From contig CBEXJS010000002.1 of the NCBI GenBank assembly GCA_965563795.1, positions 1 to 60,384 of the forward strand: DNA of 60,384 nucleotides. Direction: 5' to 3'. Position numbers and translations under genes: made by a program. Below, in pieces: positions 51,227 to 52,490 of this stretch (positions are counted from its first letter, which is position 1; the number at the start of each line of letters is the position of its first letter). This DNA comes from an uncultured Thermoplasmatales archaeon. Lineage in GTDB: Archaea; Thermoplasmatota; E2; UBA202; JdFR-43. Below the pieces are notes generated by a model, which was given only the letters and a program-made list of their open reading frames with translations, did no database searches and had not been told where the DNA came from.

Positions 51227-51460
51227 ATGAAAATTACTGTTAAAGATGCTGAAACAGGCAATAAAGTAAATATGGAAGTTGAAGATGATAATACCATTGA
51301 AGAAATAATTGAAGAAGTGGCAAATTACTGGAAAAAGAATCCAGGAGCATATGTAATAAGATATGGAAAGAAAATTTTGCAAGCTGAGCTAACTGTTGAG
51401 GAAGCAAATTTGCATGAAGGAGATGTCATTGAATTAATTCCTGATCCAGAAGGAGGTTAA
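51227..51460 (+). CDS. Ubiquitin-like beta-grasp protein ending in Gly-Gly-stop
   Basis: 77 aa: MKITVKDAETGNKVNMEVEDDNTIEEI...VIRYGKKILQAELTVEEANLHEGDVIELIPDPEGG. It aligns by eye with eukaryotic ubiquitin ([26 protein letters not shown]...LIFAGKQL...LRGG). GGTGG lies 4 nt upstream of the ATG. The stop TAA abuts the ATG of the E2 gene. Confidence 0.8.
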   Translation: MKITVKDAETGNKVNMEVEDDNTIEEIIEEVANYWKKNPGAYVIRYGKKILQAELTVEEANLHEGDVIELIPDPEGG

Positions 51461-51979
51461 ATGCCTCTTCCAAGAGATTTGTTATTAAAAAGAATAAAAA
51501 ACGAGATTAGGGAATGTAAAAGAAAGCTTAAACACCATTTTGTTGTTTCGGATCCAGAATTTAAAAAATTGCCATTAGAAATAACTGTTACATTGGTAAA
51601 TACCCCTGGACCAATATGGAGTGATGGAAGAGTAATTCATAAATTTACACATAAATTAAAGATAATTATTACTGAGGATTATCCATATCAAACACCTATA
51701 GTAAGATGGAAAAGCCCAATTTTTCATCCAAACATAATGCCTCCTGAAGATGGTGGCTATGTTTGCACAAAACTTTTAGAGGGATGGAGCTTTAAATCAA
51801 ATCTTTTAGCTTTTATTAAAGGGCTAGAAGTTTTACTTGCTAATCCAAATCCGCAGAATCCTTTTGAAACAGATGCATGTACAAGAGCTGCAGAATATTT
51901 TAATAAGCATCCCTACAATCCGCCAGAAATAAAGGAAAAGAAACCCAAAATTTTGAGAGAAAATGGTGAAGATAAGTAA
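51461..51979 (+). CDS. Ubiquitin-conjugating enzyme (UBC/E2)-like protein
   Basis: 172 aa with UBC core signature YPYQTPIVRWKSPIFHPNIMPPEDGGYVCTKLLEGW...LLANPNPQNPFE. HPN is at codons 89-91 (51725-51733) and the candidate catalytic Cys102 at 51764-51766. A GGAGG Shine-Dalgarno is formed by the Gly-Gly codons of the upstream gene. Confidence 0.82.
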   Translation: MPLPRDLLLKRIKNEIRECKRKLKHHFVVSDPEFKKLPLEITVTLVNTPGPIWSDGRVIHKFTHKLKIIITEDYPYQTPIVRWKSPIFHPNIMPPEDGGYVCTKLLEGWSFKSNLLAFIKGLEVLLANPNPQNPFETDACTRAAEYFNKHPYNPPEIKEKKPKILRENGEDK

Positions 51980-52490
51980 CGAAGAAAAGAAGGAGCCAAA
52001 GCTTCAGCCCCCTCCCCAGCAAATTTTATATAGGCATGGCAAGGAGAAAGAATTTGAATTGTACATAAAGGAAAATGCATTTCAAAGTTTGCTAGAGCAT
52101 TGCAATAAAATGGCAGAAGAGAATAAGGAAGCAATGGGATTTTTGGTAGGAGATGTAAAATATTGGAATAAAGAATATGCTGTTGTATATGATATTGCCA
52201 CTGCATCCTTAGATGCTTCTCCATATCATGTTAAATTCAGAAAAGATGCTTTTGAAGAATTATTTAATAAATTAGATGAAATAAGCTTTGATTATATACT
52301 AGTAGGATGGTATCATTCTCATCCTGGCTACTCAAGCTTTATGTCCGAAATTGATGTTGAAACTCAGAGAAAATACTTCAATAAAAGCTTTCATGTCGCC
52401 TTAGTTGTTGATCCAATTAAAAAAGAAATAAAAGCATTTAAGCTTAAAAATTCAGAATGCGTTGAAATAGGATATGCAATAGTTAAATAA
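51963..52490 (+). CDS. JAMM/MPN+ metalloisopeptidase (Rpn11/JAB-like)
   Basis: 175 aa with catalytic Glu context EAMGFLVG and a complete HxHx7Sx2D motif, HSHPGYSSFMSEID. It overlaps the E2 gene by 17 nt. Confidence 0.85.
   Translation: MVKISNEEKKEPKLQPPPQQILYRHGKEKEFELYIKENAFQSLLEHCNKMAEENKEAMGFLVGDVKYWNKEYAVVYDIATASLDASPYHVKFRKDAFEELFNKLDEISFDYILVGWYHSHPGYSSFMSEIDVETQRKYFNKSFHVALVVDPIKKEIKAFKLKNSECVEIGYAIVK

Follow-up and report, generated by a model that had tools for sequence, protein, structure and literature searches.

A probable split of an E1-Ubl-E2-JAMM operon in a thermophilic archaeon of the phylum Thermoplasmatota

The Ubl-E2-JAMM cassette is a set of three genes at positions 51227-52490 of a 60,384-nucleotide stretch of DNA from an uncultured Thermoplasmatales archaeon (assembly GCA_965563795.1, contig CBEXJS010000002.1); this whole stretch is called the window below. 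The genes encode a ubiquitin-like protein (Ubl), a ubiquitin-conjugating (E2) enzyme with the UBC fold, and an Rpn11-like metalloprotease of the JAMM (also JAB) family. The cassette is best read as a widespread archaeal E1-Ubl-E2-JAMM operon that was split in one lineage, and not as a new stripped-down system. The trio is probably the Ubl-E2-JAMM part of a vertically inherited Thermoplasmatota ubiquitylation system, whose activating (E1) enzyme was rearranged away from its partners and retained elsewhere in the genome.

The cassette and its host

The three genes are on the same strand and tightly packed:

51227..51460, + strand: Ubl gene; 77 aa, C-terminus ...PDPEGG (Gly76-Gly77), then TAA, no pro-peptide
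51461..51979, + strand: gene for the UBC-fold E2; 172 aa, HPN at residues 89-91, predicted catalytic Cys102
51963..52490, + strand: gene for the Rpn11-like JAMM/MPN+ metalloprotease; 175 aa

The ATG of the E2 gene (51461) begins at the base right after the Ubl stop codon, and the JAMM gene overlaps the E2 gene by 17 nt. A first-pass annotation, made from the letters of the sequence, had described three same-strand genes without intergenic space, and the open reading frame (ORF) coordinates found here are identical to those it gave. It had also placed the genes in an archaeal thermophile. This host assignment holds because the window encodes a reverse gyrase (40251-43418, with helicase, Toprim and topoisomerase IA domains), a class I lysyl-tRNA synthetase (LysRS), FEN1 and prefoldin, and because identical copies of the locus occur in metagenome-assembled genomes (MAGs) of Thermoplasmatota. 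Exact copies of the E2 are found in such MAGs and assemblies, for example GCA_029258955.1. The G+C content of the window is 33.8%.

A ubiquitin-type tag, a UBC-fold E2 and an Rpn11-like protease

The Ubl matches the Pfam ubiquitin family (PF00240) with 33.9 bits, above the gathering cut-off of 25.4. Its scores with ThiS (17.7 bits, cut-off 22.5), archaeal MoaD (17.4, cut-off 49.5) and SAMP1 (13.5, cut-off 60) are all sub-threshold. Sequence matches in the PDB are to the ubiquitin family and are weaker than those of the E2 and JAMM proteins. The AlphaFold2 model has a beta-grasp fold with a mean confidence (pLDDT) of 93.5. When the model is used as a Foldseek query, the best matches are ubiquitin, NEDD8 and Caldiarchaeum ubiquitin (CsUb; 6fnn_C, template-modelling (TM) score 0.89); the top 50 are all ubiquitin, NEDD8, SUMO or CsUb, with neither ThiS nor MoaD among them. 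The ubiquitin-like tag with a mature GG end that had been proposed is therefore borne out by family score, C-terminus and fold, and the model fits ubiquitin-type proteins instead of the ThiS/MoaD carriers that had been named as the possible counter-case.

Among Ubl orthologs the C-terminal motif (L/V)IPDPEGG is kept. Most of them (59/79) stop exactly at GG, and about 15 carry 1-3 residues more, which argues that the JAMM protein is mainly an eraser and a maturase in some lineages only. In the same 79 orthologs, Lys48 is invariant, and Lys49, which occupies the column of ubiquitin K48, is 82% conserved. Formation of Ubl chains through one of these lysines is conceivable from this conservation.

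The E2 scores 57.1 bits (E = 1.9e-15) with Pfam UQ_con (PF00179), for which the cut-off is 27, and no Prok-E2 family of Pfam is matched. At E <= 0.01 it detects 238 E2 sequences in the PDB, with eukaryotic Rad6/UBE2A as the best (1.9e-11), followed by UBE2T, Ubc9 and Ubc13. For its AlphaFold2 model, which has a pLDDT of 76.4 over the core, the top 50 Foldseek matches are without exception eukaryotic UBC E2s, at TM scores of 0.55-0.73. The residues H89, P90, N91, C102, W109 and P129-N130-P131 are invariant in 32 aligned homologs, and the protein also carries the motif NPNPQNP. The UBC fold and the conservation of HPN and Cys102 thus agree with the earlier prediction. The HPN triad and Cys102 had further been said to be placed exactly as in eukaryotic E2s; both are present, but the spacing is HPN-x10-C here and HPN-x7-C in Rad6/UbcH5. 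An alignment to 2AAK by phmmer shows the difference as a 3-residue insertion in the HPN-Cys loop, which is invariant across the family. The spacing that had been written as HPNI-x9-VC was also off by one, and is x8. The E2 is predicted to form a thioester with Ubl received from an E1.

The JAMM protein matches Pfam JAB (PF01398) with 51.4 bits against a cut-off of 22.5 (E = 1.1e-13). Its zinc site is complete (E55...H118-S-H120...S128..D131), and E55, the GWYHSH motif (H118, H120), S128 and D131 are each conserved in at least 95% of 73 orthologs. In the PDB the protein comes closest to yeast Rpn11 (1.1e-12) and to 6fjv, the Rpn11-like protein of Caldiarchaeum (4.5e-12), and the NCBIfam desampylase model gives 36.5 bits, with a cut-off of 130. 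The protein is predicted to remove Ubl from conjugates. The Pfam scores of the Ubl, E2 and JAMM proteins lie well outside what chance would give. The complete JAMM eraser of the first-pass annotation stands on this evidence, and the domain assignments of all three proteins bear out its logic of writer, tag and eraser.

A four-gene operon is the norm in Thermoplasmatota

When GTDB was scanned with one genome for each species, at least 258 species proved to encode a relative of the E2. The loci of the best 80 were examined, and all 80 belong to Thermoplasmatota. The E2 cluster representatives that can be detected number 271 and come nearly all from Thermoplasmata/Thermoplasmatota MAGs, at 54-98% identity. 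The earlier view that archaeal UBC-fold E2s are known mainly from Caldiarchaeum and Asgard-type cascades therefore understates their spread.

In the 80 loci the E2 is 52-97% identical to that of the window, and the order is Ubl-E2-JAMM on one strand, as in the window. An iterative search with hidden Markov models (HMMs) over all ORFs detects Ubl-E2-JAB in essentially every fetched locus, apart from those truncated at the end of a contig. On long contigs the usual arrangement has four genes: a ThiF-type E1 of about 260 aa, a Ubl of about 79 aa, the E2 and the JAB protein. Most of the 80 species-level loci have the E1 gene immediately upstream or no more than about 5 kb away. The four-gene operon is also found in the complete or near-complete chromosomes CP070767, OY970070 and CP070736. 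The cassette had been said to differ in composition from described systems; a four-gene E1-Ubl-E2-JAMM operon is the norm of its family.

Loci without an adjacent E1 form one group, which comprises the window and its closest relatives (L010-L019, L023, L024 and L027). In three of these (L013, L018 and L027) there is no E1 within the 10 kb available on both sides. The nearest relatives that have an adjacent E1 are L020-L022, in which the E2 is 68-72% identical to that of the window. Locus L090 has E1-Ubl-E2-JAB and, after the JAB gene, a class I LysRS gene in convergent orientation, which is the downstream synteny of the window. This implies that the ancestral state at this chromosomal position included the E1, and that the gene was lost from directly upstream in the subclade of the window. 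The convergence of JAB and LysRS is kept in L090 (2816-2819), which still has its E1, so the LysRS gene can serve as a synteny marker to date when E1 linkage was lost.

The context of the loci is housekeeping, with genes for LysRS, transketolase, SIS and AP endonuclease proteins, ribosomal proteins L18e/L13/S9 and MttB. Clustering of the neighbours across loci gave no further conserved partner, only housekeeping synteny and shadow ORFs, and no defence or mobile genes are among the neighbours of the examined loci. A scan for RING and RINGv domains by regular expression, over ORFs of at least 45 aa in the window and about 100 loci, gave no match.

Two oddities were seen in the set. An 'uncultured archaeon' contig (L085, 9198-10303) carries two tandem E2 paralogs with no detectable Ubl, JAB or E1 nearby, and may be a divergent variant of the system. 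Among the Thermoplasmatota matches, the E2 P0011 is labelled 'Nitrospiraceae bacterium' and the E1 P0186 'Candidatus Thorarchaeota archaeon'. Their contigs are probably mis-binned, or they could be transfers.

The E1 is retained on other contigs in relatives of the window

The E1 of L021, and then that of the genome of L015, were used as queries, and the contigs that encode the matches were looked up. In five MAGs a stand-alone orthologous E1 lies on a different contig from the Ubl-E2-JAB locus of the same assembly:

CAZTDS01: Ubl-E2-JAB at L012 (contig 39), E2 80-82% identical to the window; stand-alone E1 at L108 (contig 1)
CAZWEL01: Ubl-E2-JAB at L015, E2 78% identical to the window; stand-alone E1 at L099
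CAZNGK01: Ubl-E2-JAB at L019, E2 77% identical to the window; stand-alone E1 at L107
CAZDCH01: Ubl-E2-JAB at L023, E2 74% identical to the window; stand-alone E1 at L093
JAGGYX01: Ubl-E2-JAB at L029, E2 64% identical to the window; stand-alone E1 at L098

Four of the five are in the subclade of the window, and CAZTDS01 is its closest non-conspecific relative. JAGGYX01 is a more distant relative in which L029 starts at the contig edge, so a former upstream E1 is not readable there. In the unlinked E1s, the motifs for nucleotide binding, the zinc site (CxxC...CxxH) and the invariant cysteine of the R-x-S-C-T-G motif are all intact. The one exception is the E1 of CAZNGK01 (P0251), which is shorter at 251 aa and in which only the first half of the zinc site, without the C-terminal CxxH, was detected.

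Pairwise identities of E1 and E2 across 63 genomes are correlated (r = 0.88), as is expected if both genes are inherited together. The unlinked E1s fall on the same trend, with a mean residual of -1.5 (standard deviation 4.1, compared with 4.4 for linked pairs). This identity comparison over the 63 genomes gives no sign of relaxed or altered selection, or of rate acceleration, in the unlinked E1s.

For the genome of the window, the cluster P0288/P0287/P0134 is a candidate E1. Its identity profile of 83/76/77/79 is as would be expected from the E2 of the window (82/78/74/77). Another sequence, P0293, is in the same European Nucleotide Archive assembly (ERZ26872903) as an exact copy of the E2, yet the contig coverages are 22x and 6x. 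It was assigned to a different organism because of this coverage and because its identity profile is like that of CAZDCH01.

The stand-alone E1 occurs in two recurrent positions only. In one (L093, L107 and L110; coordinates 8001-8771, 8001-8756 and 6001-6774, respectively) it follows RadA, PurM, a further gene and OMP (orotidine monophosphate) decarboxylase on the minus strand. In the other (L099, L101-L106 and L108) it is convergent with a GNAT acetyltransferase gene and a PNP_UDP_1 gene. Both neighbourhoods lie side by side in L110, which suggests a single relocation followed by local rearrangements.

In L098 of JAGGYX01 a NosD beta-helix gene (3685-5625) is directly after the stand-alone E1, and the part of the window just upstream of the Ubl gene (48043-51103) also holds a NosD gene, together with a split transketolase. 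Insertion of NosD and transketolase genes between the E1 and Ubl genes may have been a step in their uncoupling.

A short E1 of a distinct subfamily

The E1 of the family consists of a single ThiF domain (residues 23-255 of 261) and is 251-283 aa long. This length leaves no room for a ubiquitin-fold domain, which is the E2-recruiting domain of canonical E1s, or for a separate catalytic-cysteine domain. In the PDB it is matched best by active adenylation domains from eukaryotic E1s, namely Uba1 (5.6e-30), SAE2 (8e-27), UBA6, and UBA3 (1.6e-24). Matches to MoeB (1.2e-20) and ThiF (5.7e-17) rank lower. The protein is also under every NCBIfam equivalog cut-off, with 125 bits of 275 for ThiF, 94 of 377 for MoeB and 81 of 450 for UbaA. 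These scores, and the greater nearness to Uba1, SAE2 and UBA3, indicate a distinct subfamily and not a sulfur-transfer or SAMP E1.

A proposed pathway and its alternatives

The pathway that we consider probable would have arisen as follows. A genome rearrangement in the thermophilic subclade of the window would have parted the E1 gene from Ubl-E2-JAMM, with the E1 kept elsewhere. The unlinked E1 would adenylate Gly77 of the already mature Ubl and then probably form a thioester on the invariant crossover-loop cysteine (R-x-S-C-T-G). Ubl would pass to Cys102 of the E2. With no RING E3 (ubiquitin ligase) encoded in the operon, the E2 would attach Ubl to lysines of cellular proteins, and possibly also to the invariant Lys48 or the adjacent Lys49 of Ubl itself. 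The Rpn11-like JAMM protein would take the tag off, and in those members of the family that have 1-3 residues past GG it would also mature the Ubl precursor. A stronger version is a working E3-independent pathway, in which a minimal homodimeric E1 without a ubiquitin-fold domain loads a UBC-fold E2, inherited vertically from the ancestor of a euryarchaeal phylum. This version is tentative, and we regard it as somewhat doubtful.

Several points weigh against the reading of the trio as part of a split but complete system. There is no ThiF-family ORF in the 60-kb window, by eye or by iterative HMM search of ORFs of at least 45 aa. Among the E1 homologs whose contigs were looked up, none could be placed in the genome of the window itself, and the assignment of E1s to the same genome as the cassette depends on correct binning of the MAGs. 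The E1 is short, so that handover of Ubl to the E2 is hypothetical for an enzyme with neither a ubiquitin-fold domain nor a separate cysteine domain. An E3 may be encoded elsewhere in the genome. Finally, it is from genes, folds and motifs that we infer the thioester chemistry, the conjugation to proteins, the absence of any E3 and the targets.

The missing ThiF gene could instead mean that the module is truly minimal, with its dedicated E1 lost and the trio either borrowing a generic ThiF/UbaA-type enzyme or using other chemistry. The empty window, the three relatives in which no ThiF-family ORF lies within 10 kb of the cassette, and the failure to find the E1 of the window's own assembly are all consistent with such an E1-independent module. 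However, stand-alone orthologous E1s are present in four MAGs of the same subclade, including the closest non-conspecific relative, as well as in JAGGYX01; they keep their motifs without rate acceleration, and the candidate cluster P0288/P0287/P0134 has the co-phylogenetic profile that would be expected of the missing E1. Loss of the E1 is therefore unlikely. The 'stripped-down protein-tagging system' of the first-pass annotation gives way to a derived condition of one subclade, in which the E1 is missing from beside the cassette; in five MAGs, four of them from this subclade, it is encoded on other contigs. The same annotation had offered a 'defence-type module', that is, a conjugation system like BilABCD or CBASS (cyclic oligonucleotide-based antiphage signalling system) Cap2/Cap3 that tags viral proteins. 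A Ubl, an E2 and a JAB protein with an E1 elsewhere do amount to the gene content of a Bil operon, PADLOC gives modest matches for the JAB protein (JAB 1.6e-10, BilC 8.5e-7), and the E1 adenylation domain matches Cap2-type E1-E2 models. These JAB and E1 matches span generic domains only, whereas the best PADLOC match of the E2 has E = 0.016 and the Ubl has spurious DndC matches only. Because neither of the latter is significant, the defence reading was rejected, and we judge it very unlikely. The locus also has a stable chromosomal position across the phylum, with conserved synteny beside LysRS, transketolase, ribosomal and SIS/AP-endonuclease genes, and the correlated divergence of E1 and E2 fits joint inheritance.

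A role of the Ubl chiefly as a sulfur carrier of the ThiS/MoaD/SAMP type, with neighbours that form no protein-conjugation pathway, would be in keeping with its weak matches to the ThiS, archaeal MoaD and SAMP1 models and with the short ThiF-type E1 of the family. Those matches are well below their cut-offs, though, while the ubiquitin family is above its own, and the top 50 structural matches are all of the ubiquitin/NEDD8/SUMO type. The E1 is without a rhodanese domain and under the ThiF, MoeB and UbaA cut-offs, and the Ubl always comes with an E2 whose catalytic cysteine and HPN motif are invariant. We give this explanation the least credence of all. The gene identities, the folds, the conserved motifs, the operon architecture and the E1s of the relatives are those described above, and they agree best with a Thermoplasmatota ubiquitylation system whose E1 has moved.

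Expression signals and neighbouring genes

Two features that may bear on expression of the cassette were read directly from the sequence:

51104..51226, + strand: 123-bp intergenic region 5' of the Ubl gene
51452..51456, + strand: GGAGG, a Shine-Dalgarno-like sequence (gaa gga ggt taa ATG)

The intergenic region has an A/T-rich, TATA-like stretch at about 51184-51198 and a GGTGG at 51218-51222 ahead of the ATG, and is likely to hold a putative promoter and ribosome-binding site of the operon's own. The GGAGG is made of the Gly-Gly codons (gga ggt) of the Ubl itself and lies 4 nt 5' of the E2 ATG, a position that suggests translational coupling of Ubl and E2. A sigma-70 promoter and terminator scan round the locus gave chance-level counts, from bacterial models that are not applicable to archaea. 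When the window was scanned for Rfam families and tRNAs, the only hit was a tRNA-Leu at 10652-10736, so that no RNA element lies close to the cassette by these scans.

The JAMM gene and the class I LysRS gene (52483-54024, - strand) are convergent and share 8 nt at their 3' ends (52483-52490). Long antisense ORFs at 51194-51407 (-) and 51913-52224 (-) cover parts of the Ubl, E2 and JAMM genes; these are AT-rich shadow ORFs and not genes. The ORF at 19569-20102 (-), which overlaps an aminotransferase gene at 19578-20993 (+), is likewise an AT-rich shadow ORF.

Elsewhere in the window, a Ku homolog (11697-12461, -; Pfam Ku, 4.6e-43) is directly upstream of, and overlaps, a gene for an ATP-dependent DNA ligase (10774-11700, -) with DNA_ligase_A_M and DNA_ligase_A_C domains. 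By its domains, the predicted Ku/ligase pair is a bacterial-type non-homologous end-joining pair in a thermophilic archaeon, located by the tRNA-Leu(CAA) at 10652-10736. Three paralogous large secreted proteins (17697-19562, 34154-36451 and 45035-47506, all -) have a gingipain-like Peptidase_C25 domain with the C25 propeptide, and share a C-terminal motif. Two NosD/beta-helix proteins (37672-40212 and 48043-49257) and a caspase-like C14 protein (22394-24235) are also encoded. Together, the C25, NosD and C14 proteins suggest a heavy investment in extracellular proteolysis.

Significance

Accounts of how the ubiquitin system arose usually start from Caldiarchaeum and Asgard operons, in which a RING E3 is already present. 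The cassette of the window belongs to a much larger and apparently unstudied family that combines a ubiquitin-type tag, a UBC-fold E2, an Rpn11-like protease and a minimal E1, with no E3. This family is a natural simpler stage, or a parallel branch, on which questions about the ubiquitin system could be tested. Such questions include how an E2 is charged by an E1 that lacks a ubiquitin-fold domain, how substrates are chosen by an E2 alone, and what ubiquitin-like tagging does in an archaeon whose proteasomes lack a 19S lid.

If an E3-independent pathway of vertical descent does operate, genuine conjugation by ubiquitin, a UBC-fold E2 and an Rpn11-type protease would not be confined to TACK and Asgard archaea. 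It could be older than is usually assumed, or reflect an early transfer. The thermophilic version, with a mature Ubl, small proteins and a host of the 70 degC type, would then be an ideal minimal model for E1-to-E2 transfer in the absence of a ubiquitin-fold domain, and for the choice of substrates where there is no E3. The proteins of the window, being thermophilic, should be stable and lend themselves readily to reconstitution. What the unlinked E1 mainly gives is a caution: a component that is missing from a gene neighbourhood is not necessarily missing from the genome.

Comparison with known systems

Of the systems that have been characterised, the nearest is the operon of Caldiarchaeum subterraneum and Asgard archaea, which consists of ubiquitin, E1, E2, a small RING-finger E3 and an Rpn11-like JAMM protein (Nunoura 2011, PMC3082918; Hennell James 2017, PMC5654768; Fuchs 2018, PMC6043591). 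Both systems are chromosomal archaeal operons with a ubiquitin-family tag (the Ubl is 27% identical to CsUb, with a TM score of 0.89 to 6fnn_C), a UBC-fold E2 with HPN and a catalytic cysteine, and an Rpn11-like JAMM protein (4.5e-12 to CsRpn11, 6fjv). In contrast, their operon has a RING E3, and none is linked to the cassette in the window or in about 100 related loci. The Cluster I/II archaeal E1s have a C-terminal ubiquitin-fold domain (PMC5654768, supplement), which the E1 of about 260 aa does not. CsUb carries a 9-residue pro-peptide that is cleaved by CsRpn11, whereas the Ubl of the window is made mature. Finally, the E1 is unlinked in the subclade of the window, and the host belongs to Thermoplasmatota and not to the TACK or Asgard archaea.

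Bioinformatic work has already described prokaryotic operons of ubiquitin, E1, E2 and JAB genes without an E3 (Iyer, Burroughs & Aravind 2006, PMC1779556). One passage of Fuchs 2018 (PMC6043591) places a 'JAMM-3' group in operons with ubiquitin, E1 and E2 homologs, and one of Hennell James 2017 (PMC5654768) describes an archaeal 'Cluster III' with an E1 that lacks the ubiquitin-fold domain. A 'Ca. Thermoplasmatota E2' clade appears as a deep branch among archaeal E2s in a preprint (bioRxiv 2023.07.25.550441). These operons resemble the present family in having the four components, no E3, a short E1 without a ubiquitin-fold domain, and a JAMM protein nearer to Rpn11/CSN5 than to desampylases. 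They differ in that the E2 here matches the eukaryote-type UQ_con and no Prok-E2 family. From these passages, in which the member organisms are unconfirmed, we infer that the family is equivalent to 'JAMM-3' or 'Cluster III'. The first-pass annotation had allowed that the triad might prove to be a well-characterised family; the literature searched gave no experimental, functional or neighbourhood study of the Thermoplasmatota family.

The bacterial anti-phage systems BilABCD (Bil for bacterial ISG15-like) and CBASS Cap2/Cap3 (PMC10557695) likewise combine an E1, an E2, a Ubl and a JAB protein without an E3, and their JAB protein can pre-process the Ubl. They are sporadic and located in defence islands, whereas the locus described here is phylum-wide and in a housekeeping context, and its E2 and Ubl have no significant PADLOC match. 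Sampylation by SAMP, UbaA and HvJAMM1 is similar in its archaeal beta-grasp modifier ending in GG, its ThiF-type E1 and its removal by a JAMM protein. The corresponding proteins of the present family score far below the NCBIfam cut-offs for SAMP1 (13.5 of 60 bits), UbaA (81 of 450) and desampylase (36.5 of 130). Moreover, sampylation is free of an E2, whereas here a predicted catalytically complete E2 is strictly co-inherited with the tag.

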